A stretch of DNA of 64,000 nt. Source: an uncultured Actinomycetes bacterium. Lineage in GTDB: Bacteria; Actinomycetota; UBA4738; HRBIN12. Shown in pieces: positions 20,383 to 64,000 of this stretch. The notes beneath the pieces were generated by a model, which saw only the letters and a list, made by a program, of their open reading frames with translations, was not told the DNA's origin and searched no databases. Position 1 is the stretch's first letter; the number at the start of each line of letters is the position of its first letter. Made by a program: the position numbers and the translations under genes. The DNA is taken from assembly GCA_963734275.1 (NCBI GenBank), contig CAVTGO010000008.1, forward strand, positions 32,718 to 96,717. The letters are read 5' to 3'.

Positions 20383-20389
20383 CCGCGCC

Positions 20390-24917: not shown

Positions 24918-27589
<2,672 letters not shown>

Positions 27590-27660
27590 ATCTGAGGCCT
27601 TTCGCGTGCCTGGGGTCCGACCTCCAATGGTACCGGAGGCCCCGCGGAGCCCCGGGAGCC

Positions 27661-45947: not shown

Positions 45948-45976
45948 GGAGCGCGAGCGTACTACGCTGCGTGGCG

Positions 45977-46918
45977 ATGAGGGTGACGGCGCTCGCGGGC
46001 GGGATCGGCGGGGGGAAGTTGCTGCGCGGGCTCGTCCGGACGGTGGCGCCCTCGGAGGTGACCGTCGTGGTCAACACCGGCGACGACATCGCGATGCACG
46101 GGCTCCACGTGTCGCCGGACCTGGACTCGGTGACGTACTGGCTCGGCGACGCGTTCGACCGCGAGCGCGGATGGGGACGGCGCGACGAGACGTTCCGCGC
46201 GACGGAGGAGCTCCGCCTCTTCGATCCGGAGATGGCGTGGTTCAACCTCGGTGACTTGGACCTCGCGACGCACCTGTTCCGCTCGAACCTGTTGCGCGAG
46301 AACCGTTCGCTCTCCGAGACGACGGCGCGCGTCGCCGCGCGGTTCGGCATCGAGGCGACGCTGCTGCCGATGAGCGACGATCCGGTCACCACCCGCCTGT
46401 CGGTGGTCGCCGACGGCGAGGAGCTCGATCTGCACTTCCAGGAGTACTGGGTGCGCCGGGGCGCCCGCGACGAGGTCAAGGCCGTCCGCTACGAGGGCGC
46501 GGCCGCGGCTCGCCCGGCGCCCGGCGTACTGGATGCCATCGCCAACGCCGACGCGGTCCTGCTCTGTCCCTCGAACCCCGTCGCCTCGATCGGGCCGATC
46601 CTCGCGGTCCCGGGGATCCGCGAGGAGCTCGCGGCGCGGCGCGCCGACACCGTGGGGATCAGCGGCATCGTCGGCGGAGCGCCACTCGCCGGGATGGCCG
46701 ACAAGCTCATGCCCGTGGCCGGTGCCGAGGTGACCGCCGCCGGCGCGGCCGCGTACTACGCGGGTCTCCTGGCGGCCTGGGTCGTCGACGAGGCCGACCG
46801 CGAGCTCGTGCCGCGCATCGAGGCGAGCGGGGTCCGCGTCGGCGTGACCGACTCGATCATGACCGACGACGCGAAGGCCGAGGCCCTCGCGCGGTTCGCG
46901 CTCGGCCTGCTCCCGTGA
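45977..46918 (+). CDS. fbiA: 2-phospho-L-lactate (EPPG) transferase
   Basis: MRVTALAGGIGGGKLLRGL...VVNTGDD..MHGL.VSPDLD matches the CofD family. GTG 45971 is an alternative start. Confidence 0.9.
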   Translation: MRVTALAGGIGGGKLLRGLVRTVAPSEVTVVVNTGDDIAMHGLHVSPDLDSVTYWLGDAFDRERGWGRRDETFRATEELRLFDPEMAWFNLGDLDLATHLFRSNLLRENRSLSETTARVAARFGIEATLLPMSDDPVTTRLSVVADGEELDLHFQEYWVRRGARDEVKAVRYEGAAAARPAPGVLDAIANADAVLLCPSNPVASIGPILAVPGIREELAARRADTVGISGIVGGAPLAGMADKLMPVAGAEVTAAGAAAYYAGLLAAWVVDEADRELVPRIEASGVRVGVTDSIMTDDAKAEALARFALGLLP

Positions 46919-48204: not shown

Positions 48205-48222
48205 TGGCCCGCGGTTCGTTCC

Positions 48223-49638
48223 TCAGATCACCCCGTGGACGAAGTACCAGGCGAAGATGCCGGCGACCACGTACAGGAGCGGGTGGACGTCCTTCCACTT
48301 CCCGCGCAGCACCGCGATCACGACGTACGACAGGAATCCCGCGCCGACGCCGTTCGTGATGCTGTACGTGAACGGCATGAGCAGGATCGTGAGCAGCGCC
48401 GGGATGCCGACCCCCGGATCGCTCCAGGCGATGTCCTTGACGATCCGCATCATGAAGTACCCGACGAGCACCAGCGCGGGCGCCGTCGCCTCGGGCGGGA
48501 TCATGCCGGCGATCGGCGAGAAGAACATGGCCAGCAGGAACAGCACCCCGACCGTGACGGCCGTCAGGCCGGTCCGGCCGCCCTCGGCGATGCCCGACGC
48601 GCTCTCGATGTAGGTCGTGTTCGACGAGGACGACGTCGCGCCGCCCGCGGCCGCCGCCACCGAGTCCACGAGCAGAACCCGCTTGATGCCCGGGAGCCGG
48701 CCTTTGTCGTCGAGCAACCCGGCCTCGCCGCCCAGCCCGACCACGGTGCCCATCGTGTCGAAGAAGTCCGACAACATCACCGAGATGACCGCCGCGATCG
48801 CCGTCGCGGTGCCGAGGGCCGAGAAGAAGTCGAACGAGAAGTCCCCGACCAACCCGAAGTCCGGCGACGCCACGACGTCGTCCGGAAGCGCGGCGATCCC
48901 GTTGGGCCAGATCGCCAGGTCCTTGAGCTCGTTGATGATGACGGCCAGGACCGTCGACACGACGATCCCGATCAGCAGCGCGCCCTTGACACGCCGCGAG
49001 ACGAGCGCGGCGCTGAGCGACAGGCCCACGACGAACACGGCGACCGGCCATGTGGTCAGCTCGGGCGCCAGGCTGAGCGGGGTCGGGCCCGTGTTCGTGA
49101 CCACGCCGGCGTTCACGAGGCCGATCAGCGTGATGAACGCCCCGATCCCGATCCCGATCGCGCGCTTCAGGTCCATCGGGATCGCGTTCATGATCATCTC
49201 GCGGACACCGGTGAGCACGAGCACCGTGATCAGCAGGCCCTCGACCACGATCACGCCCATCGCCTGCGGGTAGGTGAGCCCGTTCGTGGCGACCAAGGTG
49301 AACGCCACGAACGCGTTCAGGCCGAGCCCGGCCGCGAGCGCGAACGGGTAGTTCGCGACCACGCCCATGAGGATCGTCATCACGCCCGCCGTCAGGGCGG
49401 TGACGGTCAGCACCTGGGGGAACGCCAGTCCGAGCGGCTCGAGGTCCGGGATCCCGATGAACCCGAGGATCTGCGGGTTCACGAACAGGATGTAGGCCAT
49501 GGTCAGCCACGTGGTGATGCCCGCCATGATCTCCGTGCGGAAGGACGAGCCGCGCTCGCTGATGTGGAAGAACCGGTCGAGACCGGTGGGCGGCCCCTGA
49601 TCCACGCGGACGACCCTCCCTACGTCGGTGTCGGTCAT
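48223..49638 (-). CDS. NCS2-family nucleobase permease (adenine/guanine/hypoxanthine, AzgA-type)
   Basis: The ATG at 49638 follows AAGGGAGAG. The protein contains FFHISERGSSFRTEIMAGITTWLTMAYILFVNP and SSSNTTYIESASGI. Confidence 0.9.
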   Translation of the reverse strand: MTDTDVGRVVRVDQGPPTGLDRFFHISERGSSFRTEIMAGITTWLTMAYILFVNPQILGFIGIPDLEPLGLAFPQVLTVTALTAGVMTILMGVVANYPFALAAGLGLNAFVAFTLVATNGLTYPQAMGVIVVEGLLITVLVLTGVREMIMNAIPMDLKRAIGIGIGAFITLIGLVNAGVVTNTGPTPLSLAPELTTWPVAVFVVGLSLSAALVSRRVKGALLIGIVVSTVLAVIINELKDLAIWPNGIAALPDDVVASPDFGLVGDFSFDFFSALGTATAIAAVISVMLSDFFDTMGTVVGLGGEAGLLDDKGRLPGIKRVLLVDSVAAAAGGATSSSSNTTYIESASGIAEGGRTGLTAVTVGVLFLLAMFFSPIAGMIPPEATAPALVLVGYFMMRIVKDIAWSDPGVGIPALLTILLMPFTYSITNGVGAGFLSYVVIAVLRGKWKDVHPLLYVVAGIFAWYFVHGVI

Positions 49639-49817
49639 ACGCTCTCCCTTCCGGGACCGCGAGCAGGTCCCGTGCGCGGAACGGGGAAGGCGCCGCGAAG
49701 CATAGGGATAGGGTGCGCTCGCCCGCAAGCCCGATATCCTGGGGGTTCGCCCGGCCCCCGGCCGGGCGTCGATCGGATGCCCGCGGAAACCTCCGACGAG
49801 GAACGAGGACGAACGGC

Positions 49818-50564
49818 ATGGCGAACCGGCAGAGCGGCGCCCGCGCGACCCGCGACGAGCGCCGCGACCAGGCCCGGCGCGAGCGCGCCGAACTCCAGCG
49901 CAAGGTCGCGAAGGCCCGGCGGAACCGCCGGATGGTCATCGTGGTCTCGGTGGCCCTGGCCGCCGGCGTCGGCGCCTACGCCCTCACGCGCCCGCAGACG
50001 GCCGCGGCCGACCCGCAGGCGCTGCTGGCCTCGGCGGCGGAGGAGACTCGCGCCGCCGGGTGCGGCGAGGTGGAGAACGTCGGCCCGTACCAGCCCGAGT
50101 CCAGCGACCGGGCCCATGTGAACACCGACCAGGCACCACCGCTGTCCACCTATCCGTCGGTGCCGCCGGCCTCGGGCCCGCACAATCACATCACGTTCGG
50201 CCGGGGCGTCTACACGACGCCGCCACCGATCGACCGCGTCGGGCACTCGCTCGAGCACGGGGCGGTGGTCGTCTGGTACGCGCCCGACGCCGCCGGACCC
50301 GAGCTCGACCGCGTCATGGAGTTCTACGATCGCGACGAGGTGGGATCCCGCGTCATCGTGGCGCCGTACGACTACCCGGACCAGGGCGCCTCGGGACTGC
50401 TCCCGGCCGGCGTCGACATGGCCCTGGTGGCGTGGCACACGGTGCAGACCTGCCAGCAGGTGAACCTCGCGGCGGCGTTCGACTTCTCCAGCCAGTACGC
50501 CGCGCCCACGTTCGGCGAGCGCCAGTACCTCGGCGATGCCCCCGAGGCCGGCGCGGCCTTCTGA
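49818..50564 (+). CDS. DUF3105 domain protein, N-terminal basic tail + TM anchor
   Basis: Starts at ATG 49818. The core SGPH...LEHGAVVVWY...ALVAW is as recalled for DUF3105. Confidence 0.65.
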   Translation: MANRQSGARATRDERRDQARRERAELQRKVAKARRNRRMVIVVSVALAAGVGAYALTRPQTAAADPQALLASAAEETRAAGCGEVENVGPYQPESSDRAHVNTDQAPPLSTYPSVPPASGPHNHITFGRGVYTTPPPIDRVGHSLEHGAVVVWYAPDAAGPELDRVMEFYDRDEVGSRVIVAPYDYPDQGASGLLPAGVDMALVAWHTVQTCQQVNLAAAFDFSSQYAAPTFGERQYLGDAPEAGAAF

Positions 50565-50580
50565 TCACGGAGGACCCACG

Positions 50581-51405
50581 ATGCCCAAGAAGCGACGCAA
50601 GCCCCGCAACCGGCCGCGAACCCCGCCCCAGGGCGGCACCAGGACCGCGGAACGGCCGAAGCCGGACGGCGGGGCGAGGGCGAAGGCGCCGGACACCGAC
50701 GCGCCCGAGCGGAGGCCGCCGGCTCGCGAGGGCCGGCCGCCGCAGCGCCCGCGCTCGGAGAAGAAGGATCTCGCGCGCCACCAGCGCGAGCTCGTTCGCA
50801 AGCAGATCGCGCGCCAGCGTCGCACCCGTCAGGCGATCAGGGTCGCGGCCATCGCCGCGGTCGTGGCGGTCGGCGTCTACTTCTTCACCCGCCCCGACGC
50901 GACCCGCCCGGCCGGGCCGCTCCCCGGTGAGCTCGCCACCCAGGTCCCGTGGCCCGCGAACTCCGACCAGGCGATCGAGCGCGCGGACCTGATCGGCCTG
51001 CCGGCCGAGGGGACCACCCAGCACACGCATACGAACCTCCAGGTCTTCGTGAACGGCGTGATCCAGCCGATCCCGGCCAGCATCGGGTTCTCTGGCGACG
51101 TCGCGTCGCTGCACACGCACGAACAGGACCCGTCGCTCATGCACGTGGAGTCCCAGACCGTGCGCGACTTCACGCTCGGCGAGTTCTTCGACGTCTGGGG
51201 CGTGCGCCTGACCCCGAGCTGCGTGGGCGCCTACTGCAACGACGACGAGGCCCGGCTGCGGGTGTTCGTGAACGGCGTGGAGATCACGGGGAGCCCACGC
51301 GACGTGCTGCTCGAGGACCTCGACGTCATCGTCGTCACGTACGGGAGCGAGGACCAGCTCCCCGACCCCATCCCGGCGACCCACGACTTCAGCGGGATCC
51401 CGTAA
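50581..51405 (+). CDS. Hypothetical membrane-anchored protein with Lys/Arg/Pro-rich N-terminal tail
   Basis: Starts at ATG 50581 (MPKKRRKPRNRPR...). One TM, then a domain with HTHTNLQVFVNG...LHTHE...FTLGEFFDVWG. Confidence 0.55.
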   Translation: MPKKRRKPRNRPRTPPQGGTRTAERPKPDGGARAKAPDTDAPERRPPAREGRPPQRPRSEKKDLARHQRELVRKQIARQRRTRQAIRVAAIAAVVAVGVYFFTRPDATRPAGPLPGELATQVPWPANSDQAIERADLIGLPAEGTTQHTHTNLQVFVNGVIQPIPASIGFSGDVASLHTHEQDPSLMHVESQTVRDFTLGEFFDVWGVRLTPSCVGAYCNDDEARLRVFVNGVEITGSPRDVLLEDLDVIVVTYGSEDQLPDPIPATHDFSGIP

Positions 51406-51417
51406 GAGGTTCACGAG

Positions 51418-52134
51418 GTGGCCAAGCGCCGGAAGCGCAAGCCGCCGGCACGGCGACCTCCCGCCGGACCGAAGCCGGCCGCGCGAGGACGGGCGCGCGA
51501 CGCCGAGCCCGAACCCAGGGGGCGGCGCTCGCTCGCGGTCCGGGGCGCGATCCTCGTCGTCGTGGCCGTGCTCGGATACGTGCTGCTCGTACGGGCGCGA
51601 GGCCCGGGCGAGATCCCGGCCGAGGCCATCGCCGCGGCGCAGGCGGCCGGGTGCGACGACCTCGAGCGACCCGTGGAGCCCGAGCCGAGCCGGACGCACC
51701 TCGGGACCGGCGAGGCCTTCACGTACGAGGATCCTCCCGCCGCGGCCGGGCCGCACGCCTCGTCGCCGCTGCCCCCCGACCCGCACGTCCACGCCGAACC
51801 CGTCCCCGAGATCAGTGCGGTCCACAACCTGGAGCACGCGTACGTGCTGATCTATCACCGACCCTCGGCCGAGGGCGGCCCCTCCGCCGAGACGCTCGCC
51901 GCGCTCGAGGACCTCGCGAACGGACTCGACCGGGTGATCATGGCGCCATACCCGGACCTTCCCGAGGGGCGCGGACTCGCGCTCCTCGCGTGGAACATCC
52001 GGTGGATGTGTCCGTCCTCGGTGACGCCCGATCAGGCGGTGGCGATCGCGAGCGGGTTCATCGACGCCTTCGCGGGGACCACGGTCGCACCCGAGGCGCC
52101 GCGCGGGCTCCTCGGCCCGCTCCTCCAGCGCTGA
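51418..52134 (+). CDS. DUF3105 domain protein (paralog), N-terminal basic tail + TM anchor
   Basis: 238 aa beginning MAKRRKRKPPARRPP. One TM, then GPH...LEHAYVLIYH...ALLAW. Confidence 0.65.
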   Translation: MAKRRKRKPPARRPPAGPKPAARGRARDAEPEPRGRRSLAVRGAILVVVAVLGYVLLVRARGPGEIPAEAIAAAQAAGCDDLERPVEPEPSRTHLGTGEAFTYEDPPAAAGPHASSPLPPDPHVHAEPVPEISAVHNLEHAYVLIYHRPSAEGGPSAETLAALEDLANGLDRVIMAPYPDLPEGRGLALLAWNIRWMCPSSVTPDQAVAIASGFIDAFAGTTVAPEAPRGLLGPLLQR

Positions 52135-52137
52135 GGA

Positions 52138-53661
52138 TCAGTCGACGCGGCATGAGCCGCCCGGCACGCACGTGATCGCGCCGTGCTCGAAGCTCGCGCG
52201 CAGGTTGCCGTTGTCCAGCCTGCGGACGTCCGACGTGGGGAAGCCGAGCTTGCCGGCCGGCCCGCCCTCGTCGAGGTAGGCATCCAGCACCGCGCCGTCC
52301 AGCTGATGGGCTCCCGTCGCGTCGCTGCGGTAGATCGTGGCCTCCTCGAACCTCTGGCGCTCTCCCCCGGCGACCTGGACCTGCGCCGAGAGCGGCAGCC
52401 CGGCCGAGCAGCTCCGCTCGTCGTACCTCGCGCGGATGTCCCCGGTCACCTGCCGGTTGCGATTGATCCACACGCGGTCGTCGCGCAGGCCGAGGGACGA
52501 GCGCAGGGTCGCGCCGCTGATCGAGGTCGTCCCGCTCTGTCCCCTCACGGTCACGGTGAGGATCCGGCCGGAGACGCCCCGCACGGGGTCCACGAACCCC
52601 GTCACGGTCCCGATACCGAGGCCGAGCTCCGAGGTCACGTGGCCGGCCGTGAACGTGACGTCCCAGATGGCGCTCGGGTTGGCGGCGGTGTAGTCGCCGG
52701 GATCGCACACGCCGCGGAGGTAGCCGATCGGCGAGCCCCCCCACACGTCCTCGTTGTTCTCGGTGTGCCCGCCCGAGGACGACATGTAGAACGCCTGGAT
52801 CGTCTGCCCAGCGTCCCGCACGACGCGGTTGTCGGTCTGGTCGACCGAGCTCACCCACCGGTCGCCGTCGAGAGCGGCTTCCTTGTCCCAGCCCGCGTAG
52901 ACCTGGTCGAACGTGGTGGCGTACAGCGCGCAGTCGCAGACGGGACGGTGCTGGCCCGCCGCGGCCTTCGTGAACGCGTACGAACGCGCCGCGATCGCCT
53001 GCGCCTTCAGCGCGGACATCGGCCAGCTGCTCGGGACCTCGCCGAGCCCGTACAGGTACTCCTCGGCGTCCACGACGGCGATCAGGCGCATCTCGCAACC
53101 GGCGGCGCCGCACTCGTAGAGCCCGAACTCGACGTCGCCGCGTCCGTACGTGTGGGACGCCTCGGGGATCCGAACGCGTGCGCCCTGGGGCTCGTACACG
53201 GCGAAGATCGGCGTGTTCGTCCCGCCGACGCTGTCCACGGTGTCACCCGCCTGGTTCACGATGCGGTAGCGCGTGTCCGCGACGCGCACGCGCCAGGTCT
53301 CGCCCTCCGGGATCGTCGCGACGACGTTGCCGTCCCTCGGGTCACCGACCCGGATCTCGACGTCGCCGGCCTCCGCCTGCAGGCGGACTGCGTCCTGCCC
53401 TTGGATCAGCCCGACCCGGAGCGTTCTCGGCGGGTCCTCCGCCGCTCCCACCCGCGTCCCCGAGTAGTAGAGCGAGAGGATCCGCGACGGGCTCCAGCCC
53501 CGCTGGGCCAGACCATACGCCCCCCACTGCGACATCCCGAGCCCATGCCCGAAGCCCGAGCCGAACATGCGGAACTCCTTGTCGGCAGGCCCGGCGAGGA
53601 CCGGCGCGCCGCCGACGAGGAGGAAGACGAGGAGGGGAACGACGATGAGGGTTCGGCGCAT
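52138..53661 (-). CDS. SpoIID/LytB-domain protein with C-terminal LGFP-like repeat
   Basis: 507 aa with a signal peptide, GHGLGMSQWGA, YLYGLGEVP.SWP.[E/S]ALKAQAIAARSY, and AGKLGFP near the C-terminus. Confidence 0.85.
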   Translation of the reverse strand: MRRTLIVVPLLVFLLVGGAPVLAGPADKEFRMFGSGFGHGLGMSQWGAYGLAQRGWSPSRILSLYYSGTRVGAAEDPPRTLRVGLIQGQDAVRLQAEAGDVEIRVGDPRDGNVVATIPEGETWRVRVADTRYRIVNQAGDTVDSVGGTNTPIFAVYEPQGARVRIPEASHTYGRGDVEFGLYECGAAGCEMRLIAVVDAEEYLYGLGEVPSSWPMSALKAQAIAARSYAFTKAAAGQHRPVCDCALYATTFDQVYAGWDKEAALDGDRWVSSVDQTDNRVVRDAGQTIQAFYMSSSGGHTENNEDVWGGSPIGYLRGVCDPGDYTAANPSAIWDVTFTAGHVTSELGLGIGTVTGFVDPVRGVSGRILTVTVRGQSGTTSISGATLRSSLGLRDDRVWINRNRQVTGDIRARYDERSCSAGLPLSAQVQVAGGERQRFEEATIYRSDATGAHQLDGAVLDAYLDEGGPAGKLGFPTSDVRRLDNGNLRASFEHGAITCVPGGSCRVD

Positions 53662-53741
53662 ATCGGTGGGTTGTGGTGCGTTGCGGTGCGGTTAGCGGAC
53701 GGCTGCCGACGCTATCACATCGGTCTCGAGAGCCCGGAGGT

Positions 53742-54764
53742 TCATGCGGAGGAGACGGTCTCACCAGCGGAGATGCGCCCACCGTCGAGCGACACGCCCG
53801 CCTCGATGGCCGCCCCCTCCCCGAGGACCGAGTCCGTCACCCTGGCGCCCGGGCGCACGAGCGACTTCGGCCCGAGGACCGACCGCTCGACGGAGGCGCC
53901 GTCCTCGATCGCCACGGTGTCCAGGAGCACCGAGTCGTGGACGGTCGCGGCCCCGACCGCCGACCTCGGACCGACCACCACGTGACCCGTCAATCGGGCG
54001 GACGGGTCCACGCGCGCGCCGGGCGCCAGGTACGGGTTCGGGTACGCGGGCTCGCCCCGCACGCGGCCCTCGAGCAGGTCGACGTGTGCCTGCAGGTACT
54101 TCTCGGGCGTGCCGATGTCCAGCCAGTAGGCGTCGGAGAGGTAGCCGTAGACCGGCCGACCCTCGGCGATCAGCGCCGGGAAGATGTCCCGCTCGATCGA
54201 GACGGCGCCGGCGTTCGCCCACGCGCTCAGCGGCTCGGGGTCGAGGACGTAGGTGCCTGCGTTGATGTCGCCGGGCACGAGCTCCTGGGGCTTCTCGCGG
54301 AACTCGAGCACGCGTCCGTCGGTCTCGGTGGCGACCAGGCCGAACGGGCGAGCGTCGTCGACATGCGTGAGCGCGATCGTGGCGATCGCGCCGCGCTCGC
54401 GATGCATCCGAACCATCGTCGTGAGGTCCAGGTCGGTGAGGATGTCGCCGTTCAGCGCGAGGAGCGGCTCGGCGGTGTCGAGCACGCCGAGCGCGTTCAC
54501 GACCGCCCCGCCGGTGCCGAGCGGCTCGGTCTCGGTGATCCACGTGATCGCCGGGTCGCCTCCCCGGGAGGCGATGAACGCGCGGAACGTCTCCTCGAGG
54601 TACGAGCTGGACAGGACGACCTCGTGGACGTCGTGGCGGGCGAGGTGGTCCAGCACGTGATCGAGGCTCGGCCGGTCCATGAGCGGCAGGAGCGGCTTCG
54701 GGATCGTCTCGGTGAGCGGACGCAGGCGCGTGCCCTCGCCACCGACGAGGACGACCGCCTTCAT
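53742..54764 (-). CDS. manC: Mannose-1-phosphate guanylyltransferase-type NDP-sugar pyrophosphorylase
   Basis: 340 aa beginning MKAVVLVGGEGTRLRPLT...PKPLLP, with a C-terminal left-handed beta-helix region. Confidence 0.85.
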   Translation of the reverse strand: MKAVVLVGGEGTRLRPLTETIPKPLLPLMDRPSLDHVLDHLARHDVHEVVLSSSYLEETFRAFIASRGGDPAITWITETEPLGTGGAVVNALGVLDTAEPLLALNGDILTDLDLTTMVRMHRERGAIATIALTHVDDARPFGLVATETDGRVLEFREKPQELVPGDINAGTYVLDPEPLSAWANAGAVSIERDIFPALIAEGRPVYGYLSDAYWLDIGTPEKYLQAHVDLLEGRVRGEPAYPNPYLAPGARVDPSARLTGHVVVGPRSAVGAATVHDSVLLDTVAIEDGASVERSVLGPKSLVRPGARVTDSVLGEGAAIEAGVSLDGGRISAGETVSSA

Positions 54765-54789
54765 CGAGCGCCCCCGGGCGCGACCGCCG

Positions 54790-55647
54790 TCACCCGGACC
54801 TCAGCCGGTCGCGGAGCGAGACCAGCTCGGCGCGCGCACGCAGCGCCAGCCGCGCGAACGGCAGCGTGAGGCGCCACCACCCGTGCGCGCGATGCTTGCG
54901 GTAGTACCGGTAGATGCTGTCCGAGTGCAGTACGTGCATCCGCCGGGACCGGCCGGTGGACACGCCTCCCTCGTGGAGGATCTCGAGCTCGGGGGTGTAG
55001 AGGACCTTCCAGCCGGCACCGCGCAGCCGCGTGCAGAGGTCGAGCTCCTCGCCGTAGAGGAAGAAGTCCTCGTCGAACCGCCCGACCTGCTCGAACGCGC
55101 TGCGGCGCACCAGCATGGCGGCGCCGCTCACCCAGTCCACCTCACGCTCGCTCAGCCGGTCCCAGTCCGCCAGCTTGTACGCGCGGCTGTACGGGTTGTC
55201 CGGCTTGACGAGCCCGAGGAACGCGTGGCCGACCGCCTGGCCGACCGTCGGGAACACCCGGCCGCTCTCGTACATCGAGCCGTCGGCGTTGCGCACCACC
55301 GGGCCGAGGAGCGCCACCTCGTCCCGCTCCTGCCCCACCTTCACGAACGCCGCGAGATCGCCCGCCCAGGCCTCGGCGTCGGGGTTGAGGAACAGGATCC
55401 ACGGCGCTGCTGTCTGGGCGGCTCCCTGGTTCCAGGCGGCCGAGAGACCGCGGTTCGAGGGGTTCTCGATCAGCCGCGTCGACGGATGTGCGCTCGCGGC
55501 GGCCCGGGCGCTGCCGTCTGCGGACGCGTTGTCCACGACGAGGACGTCGAGGGCGAGACCGCCGGCGTGCTCGAGGACCGAGCCGACGCAGCGAGTGAGG
55601 TAGGCGCCGGCGTTGTAGTCGACGATCACGACGGCCAGGTCGGCCAT
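54790..55647 (-). CDS. Family 2 glycosyltransferase, WbbL-like rhamnosyltransferase
   Basis: The ATG at 55647 overlaps the upstream stop. The protein contains VVIVDYNAG...VVDNAS.DGS and FFLYGEELDLC. Its position next to manC matches Mtb wbbL1. Confidence 0.75.
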   Translation of the reverse strand: MADLAVVIVDYNAGAYLTRCVGSVLEHAGGLALDVLVVDNASADGSARAAASAHPSTRLIENPSNRGLSAAWNQGAAQTAAPWILFLNPDAEAWAGDLAAFVKVGQERDEVALLGPVVRNADGSMYESGRVFPTVGQAVGHAFLGLVKPDNPYSRAYKLADWDRLSEREVDWVSGAAMLVRRSAFEQVGRFDEDFFLYGEELDLCTRLRGAGWKVLYTPELEILHEGGVSTGRSRRMHVLHSDSIYRYYRKHRAHGWWRLTLPFARLALRARAELVSLRDRLRSG

Positions 55648-56024
55648 CAGTTGTGTGGGGTCCTCGAGATCAGGACGATGCCGACCGCGATGAACGCGAC
55701 CCCCGCCCAACGCAGTGGCGGCACGGTGTCGTCCAGGACGAAGTGGTCGAACAGCAGGATCAGCACGTAGGTCAGCGCCGCGAACGGGTAGGCGAACGAC
55801 AGCGACGCGCGCGAGAGCACGACGAGCCAGACGAGCGCGGACACACCGAACAGCGCGAGCCCGCCCCACACGTACGGTTGCACGACCAGGGCCCTCAGCG
55901 AGGCGCCGTTCAGGTCGAACCGGTCCGGGGCCAGCTCGGCGTTCACGTGGTTCATGCCGGTCTTGAGCGTGAGCTGCGCGACGGCCGCCAGGCCGACGGA
56001 CAGCAGGATGATGGCGATCAGCAT
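55647..56024 (-). CDS. Small 4-TM EamA/SMR-like membrane protein (possible lipid-linked sugar flippase subunit)
   Basis: The ATG at 56024 follows GAAAGGA. 125 aa, all hydrophobic helices. The function is inferred from context only. Confidence 0.5.
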   Translation of the reverse strand: MLIAIILLSVGLAAVAQLTLKTGMNHVNAELAPDRFDLNGASLRALVVQPYVWGGLALFGVSALVWLVVLSRASLSFAYPFAALTYVLILLFDHFVLDDTVPPLRWAGVAFIAVGIVLISRTPHN

Positions 56025-56077
56025 CGCGGGGGGTCCTTTCCTCGTCTGCGTTCGGTTCGCGTCGGTCCCGGTGGCGC

Positions 56078-57256
56078 TCACAGGTCCTCGACCTCGACGG
56101 CCACGGGAACCTCGACGCGCTCCTGCACCTTGGGGTACTCGTGGACCTCGAACAGGTACCGCTGCGTCTGGACGTGATACAGGTGACCGGTCCGGGCGTC
56201 CGAGAGCCCGATCGTCACCCAGTACTTGCCCGCGCCGTACGGGAAGCGCTCGATCCGGAACCGCACGCGCTTCTTCTCGAACCGGCCGAGCTCGATGCCC
56301 TCGCCCGAGGTCCGCGCCTCGAGGACCGGGTGGTTCGTGGCCCCGTCGAGGACCTGGAAGTCCACGTCGAGGTCGTCCACCGGCTGGTTCTGCCGGACGT
56401 CCACCTGGATCACGAGCGCCTCGTCCCGGAGCACCGGGCCCTCGCTGGCGCCGCTCGCGCGGATCAGGTGGACCTCGACGATCTCGGCCTCGCGCGTGCC
56501 CTGCTCGGGCACGAATCCCGGGTCCGTCACGCCGAGGAGCACGTAGCGCATCTCGCGCACCACGTCGTCGGGGGCGCCGAGCGCGTGGAGGCGCCCGTGG
56601 TGCAGCATCGCCGCCCGGTCGCAGATGTCGCGCACCGTGTCGAGCGCGTGGGTGACCAGGACGATCGTGCGGCCCTCGCGCTGGAACTCGCGGACGCGCT
56701 GGATGCACTTGGCCTGGAAGGCCTCGTCGCCGACCGCGAGGACCTCGTCGATCAGCAGCACGTCGGGGTCCACGTGGACCGCGACGGCGAAGCCGAGCCG
56801 GACCAGCATCCCCGAGCTGTAGAACTTCACCTGGTTGTCCATGAAGTCTCTCGAGCTCGGCGAACGCGACGATCTGCTCGTAGGCGGCGTCGGTCTGCTT
56901 GCGCGACAGGCCGAGGAACGACGCGTTCAGGTAGACGTTCTCGCGCCCGGTCAGGTCCGGGTGGAACCCGGCGCCGAGCTCGAGCAGCGCCGCCAGGCGC
57001 CCGCGCTGCGTGATCGTGCCGCTCGTCGGCCGCAGGATCCCGGCGATGCACTTCAGCAGGGTCGTCTTGCCCGAGCCGTTGTGGCCGATCAGGCCGAACG
57101 TGGAGCCCTCGCGGACCTCGAGCGCGATGTCCTTCAGGGCCCAGAAGTCCTCGGCGCGCGCGTGCGCCGTGAGGACGCGCTCCTTCACGAGGTCGGCTTC
57201 TCGCGGAAGACGCGGAAGCGCTTCGAGAGGTCGCGGACCTCGATCGCGGCGGCCAC
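56078..57256 (-). pseudogene. Wzt/TagH-type polysaccharide-export ABC ATPase with C-terminal carbohydrate-binding-like domain; 2 frame changes
   Basis: Three frame segments. The first is VAAAIEVRDLSKRFRVFREKPTS then TGA (57185-57187). The second is VKERVL...GHNGSGKTTLLK...IVAFAELE. The third is FMDNQVKFYSSGMLVRLGFAVA...DEVLAVGDE... to 56078. Breaks lie at about 57186-57190 and about 56846-56852. Confidence 0.85.
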
Positions 57257-58169
57257 TACAGCTCCTCCGCGAAGTCGCCCGAGCGGACGAAGAAGTACCC
57301 CCACGTGAGCCGCAGGGCGACGACGGAGACGACCAGGGTCACGGCGAGGACGGCCGCCATCCACCCGAGGCTCACGTCGAACAGGACGGGCGTCGCGGCG
57401 CCGTCGGGCTGCACCAACGCCGTAGAGGGCGCGCTGGAACCCGGCGACGACGTCGGCGAGCGGGTTCAGCAGGTAGAGCGCGAACCGCGGGACCCCGAGC
57501 CACTCCCCCGTCCCGCCGTCGGCGAGCAGCTGCGCTTGGTAGCCCGCGTACACGATCGGCGTGGCCCAGAACCACACGATCAGCGCGATGTTCAGCAGGT
57601 GACCGACGTCGCGGTAGCGGACGTTGACCGCCGCGAACCACAGCGACAGCGCGACGGTCAGGACGACCAGCGTGACGAACGCCAGCGGCCACAGCGCCAG
57701 CTCGGGGACGTGGAAGCCGTAGCCCGTGACCAGCAGGAACAGGAACAGGACCACGGTCTGGAGCGCGAAGTCCACCAGCGCCACGCCGACGGCCGACAGC
57801 GGCAGGATCTCGCGCGGGAACGCGACCTTCTTCACGAGGTTCGCGTTGTCCAGGACCGAGCGCGCCCCGCTGGTCATCGAGGCGCTGAACAGGTTCCACG
57901 CCAACAGCCCCGAGAGCAGGTACACGGGGAAGTCGGGGATGCCCGCGCCGAGCACCTTGGACGACGAACGTGAAGACCGCCAGGTAGACGAGCGGGTTCA
58001 GGAGCGACCAGACGGCGCCCAGGATCGAGGCCGCGTACTTCACCTTCAGCTCCTTGCGGATGAGGTTCAGCAGGATCTCGCGGTGCTCGGCGAGGACGCG
58101 CAGGCGCTCGCCGACCCGGAAGTGCGGCGGCTCGGAGGTGCGCTCGACGGTCTGGAGGGTCGCGGTCAT
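57256..58169 (-). pseudogene. ABC-2 type polysaccharide-export permease (Wzm/TagG-like); at least 2 frame changes
   Basis: Segments are MTATLQ...LIRKELKVKYAASILGAVWSLLNPLVYLAVFTFVV | VLGAGIPDFPVYLLSGLLAWNLF...FQRALYG | ALVQPDGAATPVLFDVSLGWMAAV...SGDFAEEL*. Breaks lie at about 57952-57966 and about 57405-57430. The span is 914 nt, not a multiple of 3. Confidence 0.85.
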
Positions 58170-58227
58170 CGCAGGTCGGCGGCGCGAACACCGCTGCGGC
58201 CGAGTGTAGCAACGGCCTTGCTGGCTC

Positions 58228-59562
58228 CTATGGAGAAGGCGTGAATTCGTCCAGGGCGCGGGCGTAGGAGAGGCCGTAGCCCTCGCGCAGGTGCTCCTCG
58301 GTGACGCCGAGGTCGACCAGCGCGCCGCCCCAGCGCGCGAGCGCCCGACGCGTCGGGATCGCGAAGCAGCGCGAGCGTCCCGTCGATCGCCTCCGCGTAC
58401 CTCCGCGCGGTGGCCTCGGAGCTCGCGAGCTCCGCCATGTGCGCGGCCGCGGCGCCGCCGATCCGTTGCGCGGAGCTCCGGGTCGTCGATCAGCCGCCGC
58501 AGCGTCGCCGCGAGCTCCTCGGCGTCGAGCCGGCCCGGGCGCGACGTGCACCACCCGGTCCTCCGGCACGTCGAGGTAGGTCCCCGTGCCGCTGACGACC
58601 GTCGTCACGCCGACCTGCATCGCGCGCGCGAGCGAGCCGCTCACCTCGCCGCGGTGCGGGAACCGCAGGTCCAGCGACGACGTCGGCCGCGCCCAGCCAG
58701 GCCAGGAAGTCCTCGTCGGACACGTCCGTGTGGACCGCGAGCCGGCCGCCGAGGCCGCTCGCGTGCGCCACGGCGTCGACGTCGTAGCCCTCGATCCGCC
58801 GGCCGACCAGGACGACGTGGACGTCCTCCGGGAGCCGCGCCGCCGCGGCCAGCACGACGTCGATCAGCTTCGCCTCGTTCAGGTCGCCGAACACGCCCAC
58901 GCAGCGTCCGCATCCCCATCGCGTCGAGCGGGGCGCGCACGACCGCCCGTCGCCCGTGCGCCCGCCGCAGGGCCTCGGCGGACTCGACCACCGGGTGCGG
59001 CGCCACGTAGACCGGCGTCCGGCAGCCGAACGCGCGCAGGTACCGCTCGACGAACGGCGAGTGGGCCACGATGCCCCGCGCTCGCCGCGCGGCGTGCGCG
59101 ACGAACGGGACGCGCAGCGGCTCGTTGCGGACGGCGTCCGGGAACGACTCGAGCCTCGGCGCGTTCGCGTGCCCCTCGCGCATCGCCTGGTGCCCGAGCG
59201 GGTCGCCCGCCGCGATCATCCCGCGCACGAAGTCGTCCAGCGCCAGGTCGTGGATCACCACGAGCCCCGGCGTCTGGATCGCGTGGCGGTAGACGTCGCG
59301 GTGGAACTCGACGTTGTTGCCCAGGTGGTAGACGCCCATCGTGTGCCACGGGATCGTGCCCTCGTGCTTCGGCTGCATCGGCCAGATCGGCTCGAACGGC
59401 GTGCCGGTACCCGATGCGCTGCAAGCCGTCCAGGACCGCCTGCGAGTAGCTCGCGATCCCGGTCTTCGCCGGCGGCATCGGCGAGAGCCACGCGATCCGC
59501 GGGTCCATCTTGTAGTCCCAGCGGATCAGGCGGCGCGCGGCGCCGACGACCGGGTTGCCCAT
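58228..59562 (-). pseudogene. GT4-family glycosyltransferase; at least 6 frame changes
   Basis: GT4-like sequence continues across all three frames: MGNPVV...LDGLQRIGY | PFEPIWPMQPKHEG...VYHLGNN...IVAHSPF | GVFGDLNEAKLIDVVL...VLVGR | DLRFPHRGEVSGSLARAMQVGVTTVVS | RLDAEELAATLRRLIDDPELR | AQRIGGAAAAHMAEL... | RALARWGG...DEFTPSP*. Breaks lie at about 59400, 58905, 58676, 58537, 58470 and 58357. Confidence 0.8.
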
Positions 59563-59564
59563 CG

Positions 59565-60971
59565 CTACTCCGTCAGCCGGGCGACGACGTCCGGCCAGCC
59601 CGGCACGCGCTCGCGCAGCACGCGCGTTGCCCGCCTCGCCCATCGCCTTGGCCTTCGGCCGGTTGGAGAACAGGACGTCGAACGCGTGCGCGATCGCCTG
59701 CGGCTCGGGCGGCGTGACGAACCCGGTCTCGCCGTCCGTCACGAACTCCAGCGGCCCGCCGGCGTCGGTCGAGCGTGACCACCGGCCGGTGCGCCGCGAA
59801 CCCCTCGAGCGTCACGTAGCCGTAGTCCTCGTCGAACGGCCCGTAGTAGACGCCGAGCGCCGAGCAGGTACAGCTCGTGCAGCTGCTCGTCGGAGACGCG
59901 GCCCGCGAGCTCGGATCTTGCGCTCGAGGCCGAGCTCCGCGATCCGCGCTCGGATGGCCGGCTCGTCGGGCCCGCCGCCGACCAGGACCAGCCGCACGTC
60001 GGTCTTCGTGTGCCGCATCGCCTCGACGACGAGCGGCTGGCGCTTCAGCGCCTCGAGGCGGCTCGGGAACACGATCGCAGTCGCCGTACGGGCCGGGCTC
60101 CATCGGCAGGAGCGCCTCGACGATCGGGCTCGGGTGGTAGAGCACCTCGGAGCTCAGCCGGTTCGAGTTCCAGAGCCGGTCCTGCACGTTGCGCGAGTTC
60201 GTGAAGATCCGCTTGGCCTCGCCGAGCGCGACCCGGTCGCTCTGCTGCACCATGTCGCGCACGGCCGGCCCCTCGACCTGCTTCGACAGGTCGGCGAACT
60301 CCGGGTGGTCCCACAGCTCGTACGCGCTGCGGTGCTGGTGGATCAGCCAGACGACCTTGCGCTCGTGCGGCACGAGGTACGCCGGGAACTTCAGCGCGAT
60401 CACCATGTCGATCGGCAGGCCGTTGGACTCGGACAGGTCGAGCGCGCGCCAGACCGCCATCTGATGGACCAGCTCGGTCGCCGGGTACCACTTGCCCGCG
60501 ACGACGACCTCCTCGGCCTCGTGCCCCGCCACCTTCAGCGCGCGGACGAGCGCCTCGGTGTGCGTCTCGGCGCCGCCGGCGCACGAACGGCGTCTGCGGG
60601 TGGACGACCGCGATCCTCACTCGCCCGCGCTCCTGCCTCAGGCGCGCCACCTCGGCCTCGAGCACCGCCACCCGGTCCGCGAGCGCCGCGTTCAGCTCAC
60701 CCAGGTCGCCCAGGAGCCGGTCGTAGCGCCACGAGATCGGCCGGAAGAGGCGGAAGAGGCGGAACTTCAGCCGCCGCCGCCACTTGGAACGGCTCGCCAG
60801 GTTGGGCTCGCCGCGCGGGATGAGCGCCTTCTCGTCGTCGCGCATGAGCATCGCGAAGTCGTGGAGCGCGTCGCGAACCTCGGCGGTGTCCATGCGCGAG
60901 CGCGGCGTGGCCTCCTCGGCCCAGTAGAGCTCGCGCTCGAGGGCGCCCCGCGCATCGTTCTCGCTGGTCAT
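59565..60971 (-). pseudogene. Coiled-coil N-terminal domain fused to a GT4-family glycosyltransferase; at least 6 frame changes
   Basis: Starts at ATG 60971. About 115 aa of helical/coiled-coil sequence (…LGELNAALADRVAVLEAEVARLRQERG) precede VRIAVVHPQTPFV | AGGAETHTEALVRALKVAGHE... | FPSRLEALKRQPLVVEAM..VLVGGGPDE | ELAGRVSDEQLHELY | ALGVYYGPFDEDYGYVTLEGFA | DAGGPLEFVTDGETGFV... | VLRERVPGWPDVVARLTE*. Breaks lie at about 60578, 60075, 59915, 59868, 59768 and 59620. Confidence 0.8.
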
Positions 60972-61072
60972 CGGGGGTGAGGGTAGCACCGGGGTCGCCG
61001 GCGCTCGCGGTTTCTCAACCACATCAGCACACGTCGGAAGCGTCCCATGCCCAGCTAGGCGATACTCCGGCC

Positions 61073-61994
61073 GTGCGCCCTGTTGACGAGGACGATGAGC
61101 TCCGCGCGGCGGCGTTCGCCTTCCTGACTGAACTGGCCGCGCGAACGGGCGGGGTCGCAACACGCCGGGACCTACGTCAGTTCGCCTTCCGGGGAGTGCG
61201 CACGTCCTTGGAACAGCACATGCGCGGGATTCGTGTGGTCGAGGGTCATCCGGCCGCACTGACGATCCTCACATCCTTTGCGGAGCACCCGGAGGAGCGG
61301 CCATACGAGGACGACATCGGGCCGGACAACTATCCACGCTACAAATGGCAAGGGAGTGACCCCTTAGCATCGGACAACGTTGCGCTGCGAACAGCCATGC
61401 AGCAGCAGAAGCCTGTGGCCTGGTTCCGCGGCGTTGCACCCGGTCTCTATGAGGTAGTACACCCAGTCTGGATCGTCGGCGAAGAAGTCTGACCAACAGC
61501 AGGTCGTGTTGGCTCTCGACGAAGTGACGCGGTCGGCCTGGCAGATGGACGTTCTCTTCAGCCCGATGGACGAAGTCCGCCGGCGTGAGTACGCCATGGC
61601 CGTGGTCCGCCGCCGCCTCCACCAACCGGACTTCCGGCGCAGGGTCCTAACCGCCTACGGACGCCAGTGTGCGATCTGCAGGCTACGGCACACTGAACTT
61701 CTCGACGCTGCACATATCAAAGAGGACGCACAGGGTGGAGAGCCCGTGGTGCCAAACGGGATCGCAATGTGCGCCATTCATCACCGCGCGTTCGACGCAC
61801 TCGTGGTCGGCGTCACGCCAGGGTACGCAGTCGAGGTTCGCAAGGACGTTCTGGAGGAGCGCGACGGCCCGACGCTGCAGCATGCGCTACAGGGAATCCA
61901 TGGAACATCGCTCATCTTGCCGAAGCAGGCCTCTCAAATGCCCAATTCTGAACTCCTCGAAGAGCGTTATGAGAGATTCCGGGAAGCTGGGTAG
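61073..61994 (+). pseudogene. Putative modification-dependent (type IV-like) restriction endonuclease: SRA/YDG-like N-domain + HNH (HNH_2-type) nuclease, split by a frameshift
   Basis: The N-terminal part (GTG 61073 to stop 61492) contains PYEDDIGPDNYPRYKWQGSDP...DNVALRTAM...PVAW. The C-terminal part (frame of 61506..61994) contains RLHQPDFRRRVLTAYGRQCAICRL...LLDAAHI...NGIAMCAIHHRAFD. The second frame is open back to about 61461, so one indel near 61480-61490 splits a single gene. The SRA-like assignment is from memory of the motif pattern. Confidence 0.6.
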
Positions 61995-62037
61995 ATGCTG
62001 ATCTGACGATCTGATCCTGGATCGCTACGGTTCGCGC

Positions 62038-62855
62038 ATGTCCGAATTGCAGCCGCCTCATCAGGCGCCGCAGCGACTCCGCGCTGACGGTGAGTGGTGG
62101 GTTCTCATGGTCACCGACGGCATGACAATTGAGTATCCGCCCGAGCTCTATCGCGATCGCGAACACGCTGAGCTCGAAGGCGAACGATGGGCACACCTCC
62201 TGTCGGCCATATCCGGCCAGCCCGTCGAAAGGCCTTTCGAGGGGCGGTGGGAGATTGGCGACAGGTGGGTCCGGCTTGTGTGCTCGTTCCTTCCCGAGGA
62301 GGGGTCCGAGATCTGGGTCGGCACCCACTGGGGCCGAGATGGTTCACCCGAGCCGGAGGCAGCGCTCTTCGCAGATGCAGCCGAGGCGAGAACGTGGGCG
62401 CTGAGCCACGCACCGGCGCCATCCCGTTCGAAACTCACGAGACTCCTTGGACTGTTGTCGTCGGCCACCGAGTTCGAGGCGGCGAGGAGGAATCCGAGGT
62501 CCATCGCGGCAAGGTCGTCGCCGACCTCATGGCCCCATCTATCGACGGGTCCTCGACGACGGTGTACGGGTTCGAGGTGAGTGAGGGCCTCATCCCACAG
62601 GGCCCTAACCTGTTCGCAAGCCGAGAGGTCCGCAACGAGACTCTCCGGCGACTGCTGGAGGCCGAGATGACCCATCGGGATTGGCGAGACCTCGTCTCGG
62701 CCACCGCAGCTGGAAACTATGTCGAGAACGACCTGCCATCGAACTGGCAAGAAATGTGGACTGACAGTGTGGGTCTGGAGTGGTTACTCGGCTTCAACTT
62801 CGTCGGCGACGGGGATGACTTTGAGATCCGCTGCTTCGAAACGGCAATCGGCTAG
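62038..62855 (+). CDS. Hypothetical protein(s): either one gene with a frameshift near 62405-62425, or two overlapping genes (62038..62580 and 62529..62855)
   Basis: Two track ORFs in different frames both have protein-like stretches. No family recognised. GC is about 60%. Confidence 0.3.
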
Positions 62856-63032
62856 GCGGGTGAGCCGACAGGCGTGACCTACCGGTGGGTTGAATTCACC
62901 AGGGGCTTCGGTTGAGGACTTGATCCGGATCACCGGCAACGTGATCATGCCCTCGTGCCGACTTCATACCCTCGGTGGCGCCACTACCCGCTTTGGAGAA
63001 CCCCCGGACCCTGGGTAGCCGAGATTGTGGGC

Positions 63033-63254
63033 ATGGTGTCTGCAGCGGAAACGGGCATCTCCTCGTCGAGCGCACATCTTGAGAGCAACAAGGTCCTTGC
63101 GCATCTGGGTCCGGGATTGGAAGGGATCGGATTCGAAGTAGAGAAACGCGGAACCAAACTCGCCCGTCCGGTCCTCTTTGGCGATGAGGGAACTGTCTCG
63201 AAGTCCTTCAACGTGGACGCATTCAGGCTGGGAGATGGCGTGGCTCTGGAGATT
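63033..63254 (+). other. 5' fragment of a possible PD-(D/E)xK restriction-endonuclease-fold gene, cut off at the 63254/63255 junction
   Basis: Starts at ATG 63033: MVSAAETGISSSSAHLESNKVLAHLGPGLEGIGFEVEKRGTKLARPVLFGDEGTVSKSFNVDAFRLGDGVALEI. The D...(A/V)LE(I/V) pattern resembles nuclease cores. The assignment is speculative. Confidence 0.25.
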
Positions 63255-63767
63255 GTGCGCACCGCACGAGTGCTGGTCGCTTCCTATGTCACCGTCATTC
63301 GAAATCTGCCGCTCCTGGTGATCGTCCTTTTCGCCTATTTCGCCCTGCCGCGACTTGGTTTGCGACTTGGTAAGGTCGAGAGCTTCATAGCCTCGCTCGC
63401 ACTCTATGCAGGCGCCTATCTGACGGAGGTTTTCCGCGCCGGATTGGTGGGCGTCCCTAGAGGCGTTGTTGATGCAGGACTTGCCATCGGCCTCACAAGG
63501 TCCAGGGTTGCTCTTTATGTGGTCTTGCCGATTATGCTGCGCAATTCGCTTCCCGCGCTCGGCACGACATTTATCTCCTTATTCAAGGACACTTCGCTCG
63601 CCGCAACCATTGCAATTCAGGAGCTGACGTTTGTCGCCCGCAAGATCAATGTCGAGACTTTTCGTGTGGCCGAGGCCTGGCTCGCGGCGTCGGTTCTTTA
63701 TATTGCAACTTGCCTGATTCTGGCTGCCGGCCTGCGGCGGCTCGAACGGCAGTTCCCCAAATTTTGA
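63255..63767 (+). pseudogene. Polar amino-acid ABC transporter permease (HisQ/GlnP/OccQ type), 5'-truncated
   Basis: Contains ...YVTVIRNLPLLVIVLFAYFALP...YAGAYLTEVFRAG...LPALGTTFISLFKDTSLAATIAIQELT..., including the EAA-loop region. About 50-60 N-terminal residues are missing and it has no start or RBS of its own. It is read through from the preceding fragment only by chance frame continuity. GC is about 57%. Confidence 0.8.
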
Positions 63768-63776
63768 GGCGTGCAT

Positions 63777-64000
63777 GGATGCTTTTGTTCGCGAACTGAC
63801 GATTGCCGCCGGGCCGCTGCTCGACGGCTTTACCCTCACCATTTGGATTTCCGTATTTGTGATCACCTTGGGCTCACTCGTCGGGATCCTGTTCGGTGTT
63901 CTTCTCACTTACGGTTTTCGGCCGCTGCGCTGGCTCATTCGCGGTTATGTCGATGCAATTCGCGGAACGCCGGTCCTCGTCCTGATCCTCGCTTCGTATT
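63777..64000 (+). CDS. Polar amino-acid ABC transporter permease (second permease, HisM/OccM type), partial at the window end
   Basis: The ATG at 63777 lies 9 nt after the upstream stop, with a GAGG SD. Hand translation gives MDAFVRELTIAAGPLLDGFTLTIWISVFVITLGSLVGILFGVLLTYGFRPLRWLIRGYVDAIRGTPVLVLILASY. Not in the track because there is no stop in the window. Confidence 0.8.

Follow-up and report, generated by a model that had tools for sequence, protein, structure and literature searches.

Frame breaks in a Wzm/Wzt surface-glycan locus of an actinomycete metagenome contig are very probably artefacts of a strain-collapsed long-read consensus

Four consecutive surface-glycan genes in the window, the 64,000-nucleotide stretch of DNA that we analysed (~72% G+C), are interrupted by 16 single-base frame breaks. 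The pattern of the sequence around these breaks argues strongly that they are not mutations but consensus artefacts, produced when closely related strains were collapsed in a long-read metagenome assembly. In the living organisms, all four genes are probably intact and would serve an ABC-transporter-dependent (Wzm/Wzt) pathway for a cell-envelope glycan.

Position of the breaks and repair of the four genes

Reading frames were tested with a GC3 frame plot and a 6-frame periodic-composition Viterbi segmentation. The segmentation was used in place of a GC3-based ORF filter, which let antisense shadow frames through. Between 56082 and 60972, it gave 17 segments with a mean length of ~290 bp, and at least 13 of them had no in-frame stop codon at their end. 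From 1 to 56 kb, it gave ~45 gene-sized coding segments, none of which had a convincing break by this test. The one break that the sequence-only reading had reported in these 56 kb was located in secA, at ~27165 inside a G7 run. The same reading had described the genes immediately downstream on the same strand as clean, and we found the EamA-like, GT2, NTP_transferase and SpoIID/LGFP genes to be intact by Pfam and Viterbi segments. The small EamA-like membrane protein gene (55650-56027, minus strand) and the GT2 (WbbL-like) gene (54790-55869, minus strand) each end at their own stop codon, with Pfam domains present. A scan of 60.5–64 kb found no tRNA.

To place each break, we aligned intact orthologous proteins of related MAG loci to the DNA, with frameshifts allowed. 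The four genes, all on the minus strand, aligned to their orthologues along the whole length with 73–85% identity. In the glycosyltransferase gene GT4-2 (59565..60971), which encodes a Glycos_transf_1 domain with an N-terminal extension of ~120 aa, alignment to the L046 and L018 orthologues placed six single extra bases at 60582, 60079, 59910, 59865, 59770 and 59623. GT4-1 (58228..59562) also has six single extra bases, at 59396, 58901, 58679, 58537, 58468 and 58354, and these were checked at residue level against four orthologues. The ABC-2 (Wzm-like) permease gene (57256..58169) has extra bases at 57963 and 57416. The gene for the Wzt-like ABC ATPase with its Wzt_C carbohydrate-binding domain (56078..57274) has two breaks: one base is missing at ~57187-57189, where GG is read as G, and one is extra at 56849. 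Thus 15 of the 16 breaks are a single extra base, one is a missing base and every event is 1 bp. An apparent "shared" break at ~60630 was rejected as an artefact of stop-to-stop reference ORFs, since in the window the frame that starts with the ATG at 60971 stays open across this point.

The 16 approximate break points listed in the sequence-only reading all agreed with this alignment to within ~5 nt. Alignment to the orthologues likewise bore out its statements that the four genes contain only indels, with no in-frame stop codons, and that most breaks lie outside homopolymers. The break sites contained neither simple-sequence tracts nor slippery motifs.

The alignment of frame-corrected proteins to homologues, which had been proposed as a check, placed each indel and made all four genes repairable. 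When 15 bases were deleted and one was added, four stop-free ORFs of 398, 303, 442 and 466 aa were obtained, with GC3 of 0.98-0.99. GC3 was already high before repair: of the 21 segments between breaks, 19 had values of 0.94-1.00 and two short ones had 0.85 and 0.90. Pfam confirmed the predicted families, and the domains are complete in all four repaired proteins: ABC_tran (1-135/137) plus Wzt_C in Wzt (~390-398 aa), ABC2_membrane (6-181/211) in the permease (303 aa), and Glycos_transf_1 in both GT4-1 (14-169/172; 442 aa) and GT4-2 (18-169/172; 466 aa). P0121, a 398-aa cluster mate, was considered as an intact Wzt and rejected, as it is the same C-terminal fragment fused to the EamA gene by another frameshift.

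Comparison with a second assembly

The same organism is represented by a second assembly, ENA ERZ25039588 contig_18439 (878,670 bp; hereafter L081). Cluster look-ups for a third assembly covering the locus returned only the window contig and L081, plus a 2.7-kb Logan contig that stops short of the locus. The nearest other Wzt proteins are at most 88% identical, and the closest relatives are Microflora Danica MAGs.

L081 and the window are 98.6% identical over 17.6 kb, with 70 gaps that are all 1 bp, and their flanks are ~99.8% identical. The four genes in L081 have ~12 breaks of their own, of which 11 are extra bases, and the positions differ from those of the window. Only two breaks, both in GT4-1 (~59396 and ~58468), are common to the two assemblies, and L081 lacks the other 14 of the 16. 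All six extra bases of GT4-2 are missing from L081, and those at 58901, 58679, 58537 and 58354 in GT4-1 are private to the window. Genuine pseudogene mutations should recur in independent assemblies of one strain, and for 14 of the 16 breaks they do not. By a rough estimate, about one shared break would be expected by chance. On our own reading of the sequence, each of these two sites is also compatible with a third-position doublet of the Arg codons CGG/CGC.

Damage of the same kind occurs elsewhere in L081, which has ~33 extra bases in cofD, an F420 ligase/nitroreductase gene and a permease gene whose window copies are intact. The window sequence is free of extra and missing bases over 54790..56027, where the sole indel between the assemblies is L081's own extra base at 55507. 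On the other side of the glycan genes, an HNH_2 endonuclease gene (61220..61994, plus strand) is split in the window by an extra A at 61485, where GAG is read as GAAG; by tblastn, the matches of the window to the intact 257-aa protein of L081 are divided between two frames. This break belongs to the same error cluster as those of the glycan genes, just beyond the 56078-60971 range in which the cluster had been noted.

The differences between the assemblies are concentrated in two polymorphic blocks. In cluster B (55451..61500), the window differs from L081 by 90 substitutions (1.5%) and 30 indels of one base; cluster A has 2.0% substitutions and 39 indels. The 6 kb downstream of cluster B, between the two blocks, has 0.18% substitutions and zero indels. 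The errors are thus restricted to polymorphic blocks, and the monomorphic stretch is clean. Cluster B adjoins a low-GC island. In the four genes, the substitutions fall on codon positions 3:1:2 in the ratio 63:13:5, and they are therefore genuine strain SNPs filtered by selection. The third-position bias is weaker in cluster A (36:28:10). Of the 177 substitutions in the full 17.6 kb of alignment, 92 are C/G exchanges.

The extra bases were then examined for codon phase. Local frame inference in 150 bp around each indel was too noisy near other breaks, and explicit repaired coding sequences were used instead. The four genes and the neighbouring GT2 gene together have 23 private insertions. All of them adjoin a third codon position, and 22 equal a synonymous alternative allele of the adjoining third-position base. 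Over all 43 isolated events, 34 were synonymous-compatible (17.6 expected) and 32 were non-homopolymeric (19.1 expected). Neither observed count was reached in any of 5000 simulations, which argues that the consensus very probably retained the two alleles of strain SNPs one after the other. Indirectly, then, the errors appear to sit at SNP sites and to carry the alternative allele.

Origin of the extra bases

We propose the following origin for the breaks. At least two very close strains would be present in the sample. Over a ~6-kb block, they would differ mostly by synonymous changes at third codon positions, and a single contig would have been built from their pooled reads. At some of the polymorphic sites, the consensus or polishing step would write both alleles in tandem, such that CTC and CTG become CTCG. 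Each such event would add one base and shift the frame. The cause may lie in the consensus error model: if a one-base deletion in a read is cheaper than a substitution, a two-base string would fit both read populations better. Both alleles presumably coexist in the reads of this sample, and consensus or polishing is presumably the software step responsible.

The frameshifts depend on the sequencing technology or pipeline, as seen in the Wzt and permease copies of related MAGs and in the homopolymer error in secA. Extra-base frameshifts were found in 5 of 58 copies from Flye-named long-read MAGs and, one compensated pair aside, in 0 of 94 short-read copies (hypergeometric p ~0.007, our own estimate). 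The break of the essential secA in a G7 run marks the contig as an unpolished long-read consensus, and we infer that its sequencing platform was long-read. The Microflora Danica MAGs come from Nanopore-only metaFlye assemblies with one round of Medaka (PMC12313526). According to a passage of PMC8302730, Flye merges strains that are ~98.7% identical into one consensus, and a passage of PMC8092372 states that polishers that are not haplotype-aware harm coding sequence in heterozygous regions. Our literature searches for a published description of the exact "tandem allele" insertion error gave only general statements.

Three explanations had been offered on the basis of the sequence alone. The merging of mixed-population variants into one consensus is the one favoured by the phase-aware insertions, their clustering with SNPs and the disagreement between the assemblies. 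The idea of a local collapse of consensus quality held only in part: strain heterogeneity is supported, whereas low coverage by itself is insufficient because simple low coverage would give phase-blind errors. A collapse of coverage that left random long-read errors uncorrected, with no strain mixture, would be consistent with the local character of the error cluster and with the classic homopolymer error in secA of the same contig. However, random errors would fall without regard to codon phase and would not copy synonymous third-position alleles, and the errors observed here co-occur with true SNPs. Nanopore errors are mainly deletions and homopolymer miscounts, unlike the non-homopolymer insertions that dominate at this locus. 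We consider such a collapse improbable.

Genuine decay, in which the glycan pathway was lost very recently and the four genes are accumulating frameshift mutations, is slightly less probable still. The breaks are limited to one functional unit with intact neighbours, two of those in GT4-1 are common to both assemblies, and surface-glycan loci are often lost or varied. But the spectrum is not that of a natural pseudogene cluster. All events are 1 bp, all but one are insertions, most lie outside homopolymers, nonsense codons are absent and GC3 remains high between the breaks. Insertions that follow codon phase and copy synonymous alleles are beyond any mutational process. The substitutions are strongly biased to third positions, and at most ~27 of them could be neutral, against ~30 indels; in bacterial mutation-accumulation studies, indels are about ten times rarer than substitutions. 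Decay would also require at least 12 independent frameshifts in each of two assemblies whose flanks are nearly identical, and the similar damage in the F420-biosynthesis genes is found in L081 only. With only two breaks shared, the earlier suggestion of recent wholesale pseudogenisation is not upheld.

Least probable of all, and by far, is a biological origin by programmed frameshifting or by slipped-strand on/off switching. Phase variation of glycan genes is well known in some bacteria, but the lack of repeats or slippery motifs at the sites effectively refutes this explanation. Moreover, 16 sites in 4.9 kb are incompatible with programmed frameshifting, and the positions differ between the window and L081.

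The two shared GT4-1 breaks (~59396 and ~58468) are a counterpoint, as they could be genuine. They fit the tandem-allele origin only if both samples hold the same haplotype pair. If they were genuine, GT4-1 would be a very young pseudogene or a split gene in this actinobacterial lineage, and the other breaks would remain artefacts. As a separate matter, the polymorphic block may mark a hotspot of recombination or diversification within a cell-envelope glycan locus. We regard this combination as unlikely, although somewhat less so than either decay of all four genes or coverage collapse.

IDEEL-type tests measure the false pseudogenes that indels cause in Nanopore and PacBio CLR assemblies, and tools such as proovframe repair them. 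As in those cases, the breaks described here are single-base indels that split otherwise intact genes, and they occur in long-read assemblies only. The secA break in the window is a textbook case. However, textbook errors are homopolymer miscounts scattered over the genome, whereas the glycan locus has non-homopolymer insertions at synonymous SNP sites in polymorphic blocks. The locus also resembles the products of strain-collapsed metaFlye-type consensus and haplotype-mixing polishers, as described in passages of PMC8302730 and PMC8092372, in the merging of two ~98%-identical haplotypes into one contig and in allele switching and coding damage within heterogeneous stretches. Those passages describe allele switching and lower identity; tandem alleles giving +1 frameshifts, as proposed here, are not described in them.

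Implications for the glycan pathway and for MAG catalogues

The locus contains a Wzm-like ABC-2 permease, a Wzt ATPase with Wzt_C, two GT4 and one GT2 glycosyltransferases and a sugar-nucleotide transferase. By their domains, the repaired proteins, together with the downstream GT2 and NTP_transferase, have the make-up of a Wzm/Wzt export system. This is the same gene content as in Wzm/Wzt glycan export loci of O-antigen and cell-wall polysaccharide clusters, and the repaired genes show nothing unusual in comparison with them.

The MAG should not be counted as having lost the Wzm/Wzt glycan pathway, and these "pseudogenes" should be kept out of statistics on decay or genome reduction. Non-homopolymer +1 insertions that adjoin third codon positions and equal a synonymous allele can be recognised from assembled sequence without recourse to reads. 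In catalogues of long-read MAGs, they would thus serve to flag stretches that are strain-collapsed and mis-polished. Such stretches, and with them false claims of gene loss, are most to be expected in hypervariable surface-glycan loci.

Position and nature of the frame breaks

At a G+C content of ~72% for the window, long spurious ORFs arise in every frame, so we used codon-position composition instead of ORF length. In a GC3 frame plot, the high-GC3 phase jumped frame repeatedly across 56.0-61.0 kb and was steady per gene elsewhere. A six-frame periodic-composition Viterbi segmentation, trained on the window's long ORFs, split 56082-60972 into 17 segments (mean ~290 bp), at least 13 of which had no stop codon at the end in their own frame; segments in 1-56 kb were gene-sized and terminated at stops. 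Pfam searches of the pieces returned ABC_tran with Wzt_C, ABC2_membrane and GT4. The genes downstream of the breaks (EamA-like, GT2, NTP_transferase and SpoIID/LGFP) were intact by Pfam, in agreement with the sequence-only reading, which had called the immediate downstream neighbours clean. When intact orthologues taken from 80 related loci were compared with the window by blastx, single proteins matched it across consecutive frames.

Breaks were placed with a purpose-written frameshift-aware protein-to-DNA aligner, using intact orthologues as references. There were 16 in total, all in minus-strand genes: 57189 and 56849 in the Wzt gene (56078-57274); 57963 and 57416 in the permease gene (57256-58169); 59396, 58901, 58679, 58537, 58468 and 58354 in the first glycosyltransferase gene, GT4-1 (58228-59562); and 60582, 60079, 59910, 59865, 59770 and 59623 in the second, GT4-2 (59565-60971). 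A 17th break at ~60630 was dropped, as it arose from stop-to-stop reference ORFs. Each of the 16 break points proposed by the sequence-only reading was reproduced to within ~5 nt, and no in-frame stop was found in the four genes by this alignment, as that reading had also stated.

Of the 16 breaks, 15 consist of a single surplus base; at the remaining one (~57187) a base is lacking, GG being read as G. Once the 15 were deleted and the lost base was restored, the four genes became stop-free ORFs, 398, 303, 442 and 466 aa long, whose GC3 was 0.98-0.99. Pfam domain matches run end-to-end in the repaired proteins, and the fragments lack such matches. Between breaks, GC3 was 0.94-1.00 in 19 of 21 segments (0.85 and 0.90 in two short ones), which means that the coding signal is essentially untouched. 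With its genes repaired, the locus is an unremarkable glycan export cluster of the Wzm/Wzt type.

At its N terminus, GT4-2 has an extension of ~120 aa (MTSENDARG...LEAEVARLRQERGR; 60620-60971, minus strand) that resembles a coiled coil and shares the frame of the GT domain. The homologous stretch in two loci of related MAGs (L046 and L018) sits upstream in another frame; a separate gene might be encoded there, or those long-read loci may contain errors of their own.

Comparison with a second assembly

The 254-aa Wzt fragment of the window is present exactly in the protein collection as P0001, encoded on an NCBI/ENA contig of 100,742 bp. The only other member of its cluster, P0121, has this fragment joined to the next gene by a different frameshift and is encoded on an 878,670-bp ENA metagenome contig (ERZ25039588 contig_18439, here L081), a second assembly of the same organism. 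Window 45675-63255 and L081 were 98.6% identical, with 177 substitutions and 70 gaps, every gap exactly one base long. These differences were unevenly spread. Cluster A (45.8-49.45 kb) had 2.0% substitutions and 39 one-base indels, and cluster B (55.45-61.5 kb), which spans the glycan genes, had 1.5% and 30. The values were 0.18% and 0 between the clusters (49.45-55.45 kb), and 0.06% and 1 beyond cluster B (61.5-63.25 kb).

Within cluster B, L081 lacks the bases that break the window's genes, except at two GT4-1 breaks, the only ones common to both assemblies. L081 has its own extra bases there, at 56131, 57159, 57656, 58400, 58454, 58759, 58970, 59899, 60786 and 55507. In cluster A, L081 holds ~33 surplus single bases (L081 ~17400-21000, window 45.8-49.4 kb), which break cofD, an F420 ligase/nitroreductase gene and a xanthine/uracil-type permease gene, all intact in the window. 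Cluster A is a second strain-collapsed block, and its damage in L081 shows that the artefact also strikes outside glycan genes.

Substitutions between window and L081 in the four glycan genes fell at codon positions 3, 1 and 2 in the ratio 63:13:5. C/G exchanges made up 92 of the 177 substitutions in the whole 17.6-kb alignment, the pattern expected of synonymous change at a GC3 of ~98%. We therefore rejected the possibility that the substitutions are errors; the clusters are stretches of genuine, selection-filtered strain polymorphism.

Identity with L081 ends abruptly at 63255 (L081 position 3591), with unrelated sequence beyond. The junction lies within an ABC permease ORF (62955-63767, BPD_transp_1), which the window has at full length; in L081 the ORF stops 47 nt past the junction. 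The cause is a rearrangement or insertion specific to one strain, or else one of the assemblies contains a chimeric join. Window 61000-64000 has a G+C of 57-63% (~72% elsewhere), shows no GC3 periodicity and was segmented as non-coding by Viterbi; no tRNA was found in it. This stretch, immediately upstream of the glycan operon, is probably an island of foreign origin. The abrupt structural difference beside this low-GC island indicates that strain-level variation exists near the locus.

Codon phase of the extra bases and the rival explanations

We mapped isolated private insertions on the repaired coding sequences and asked if the extra base was an alternative allele of its neighbour; for the null, the same bases were placed randomly in the same genes in 5000 simulations. 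Of the 23 insertions located in one of the four glycan genes or in the neighbouring GT2 gene, every one adjoined a third codon position and 22 matched a synonymous alternative allele, as where CTC/CTG is written CTCG, or GAC/GAT is written GATC. Among all 43 insertions, 36 had a third position as neighbour (23.6 expected), 34 were synonymous-compatible (17.6 expected) and 32 were non-homopolymeric (19.1 expected). None of the 5000 simulations attained any of the three counts. An HNH_2 endonuclease gene (61220-61994, plus strand; 257 aa and intact in L081) is split in the window by an extra A at 61485, so that GAG becomes GAAG, in line with the tandem-allele pattern of the glycan genes. On the simplest reading, the consensus would have retained, one after the other, the two alleles of a strain SNP. 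Neither a mutational process nor random read error senses codon phase, and this test is thus decisive.

The sequence-only reading had offered three explanations: collapse of consensus quality, recent pseudogenization, and merged mixed-population variants. Genuine decay is contradicted by the spectrum (all events 1 bp, 15 of 16 insertions, mostly non-homopolymeric), by the codon-phase signature, by the absence of nonsense codons, by the retained third-position bias of substitutions, and by the disagreement of the two assemblies on break positions. It would need at least a dozen independent frameshifts per lineage in the same genes, between flanks ~99.8% identical, and destruction of F420 biosynthesis genes in one lineage, which we judged not credible. 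The two common GT4-1 breaks could be real; on our reading of the sequence, both sites are also compatible with CGG/CGC Arg doublets. Pure low coverage, one form of the first explanation, would not yield insertions that follow codon phase and resemble alleles. Programmed frameshifting and phase variation are excluded, since there are no repeats or slippery sites at the breaks and the breaks are too many. Merged variants, the third explanation, are almost certainly the right one: nearly all insertions in and next to the glycan genes match synonymous alleles at third positions, within SNP blocks. The glycan-gene breaks are almost certainly not a real biological feature.

Sequencing technology and proposed mechanism

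We ran the same aligner over the 80 related loci and scored Wzt and permease copies, taking Flye-style contig names as long-read. Single extra-base frameshifts were present in 5 of 58 copies in long-read MAGs and 0 of 94 in short-read MAGs, bar one compensated pair (p ~0.007, our own hypergeometric estimate). Those in Flye-named Microflora Danica MAG loci were at 10631 (L015), 10466 and 10629 (L018), 9883 (L039), 9871 (L065) and 10993 (L073). The single break noted earlier elsewhere in the window proved to be in the essential gene secA (24921-27601, minus strand), where the SecA_DEAD N-terminal piece and a 787-aa remainder lie in different frames. This break, at ~27165, falls within seven consecutive G (ATGGGGGGGTG), at which SecA homologues such as PDB 1NKT need one more base; it is a classic homopolymer undercall of an unpolished long-read consensus.

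The closest relatives of the window are Microflora Danica MAGs, which metaFlye assembled from Nanopore reads, followed by a single Medaka round and no short-read polishing (PMC12313526). We infer that the window's own contig came from such a long-read pipeline. Published work documents that Flye collapses strains ~98.7% identical into one consensus (PMC8302730), and that polishers without haplotype awareness mix haplotypes and harm coding sequence (PMC8092372).

A single contig would have taken in reads of two strains that differ at synonymous sites in the glycan block. For some of the SNPs, the consensus step would then write both alleles, adding one base, presumably because its error model prices a one-base read deletion below a substitution; a two-base consensus would thereby explain both read populations better than a single allele. 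The block-wise pattern may mean that the strains truly differ in recombined tracts only, or that the assembler kept them apart elsewhere and collapsed them here.

The glycan-gene breaks belong to a known class, indel-induced false pseudogenes in long-read assemblies, of which they form a sub-type tied to strain mixture. Our literature search found no explicit description of this sub-type (tandem-allele insertions) in the portions of text it returned. The biological interest of the breaks is low, and the codon-phase signature is a practical, read-free flag for such regions.
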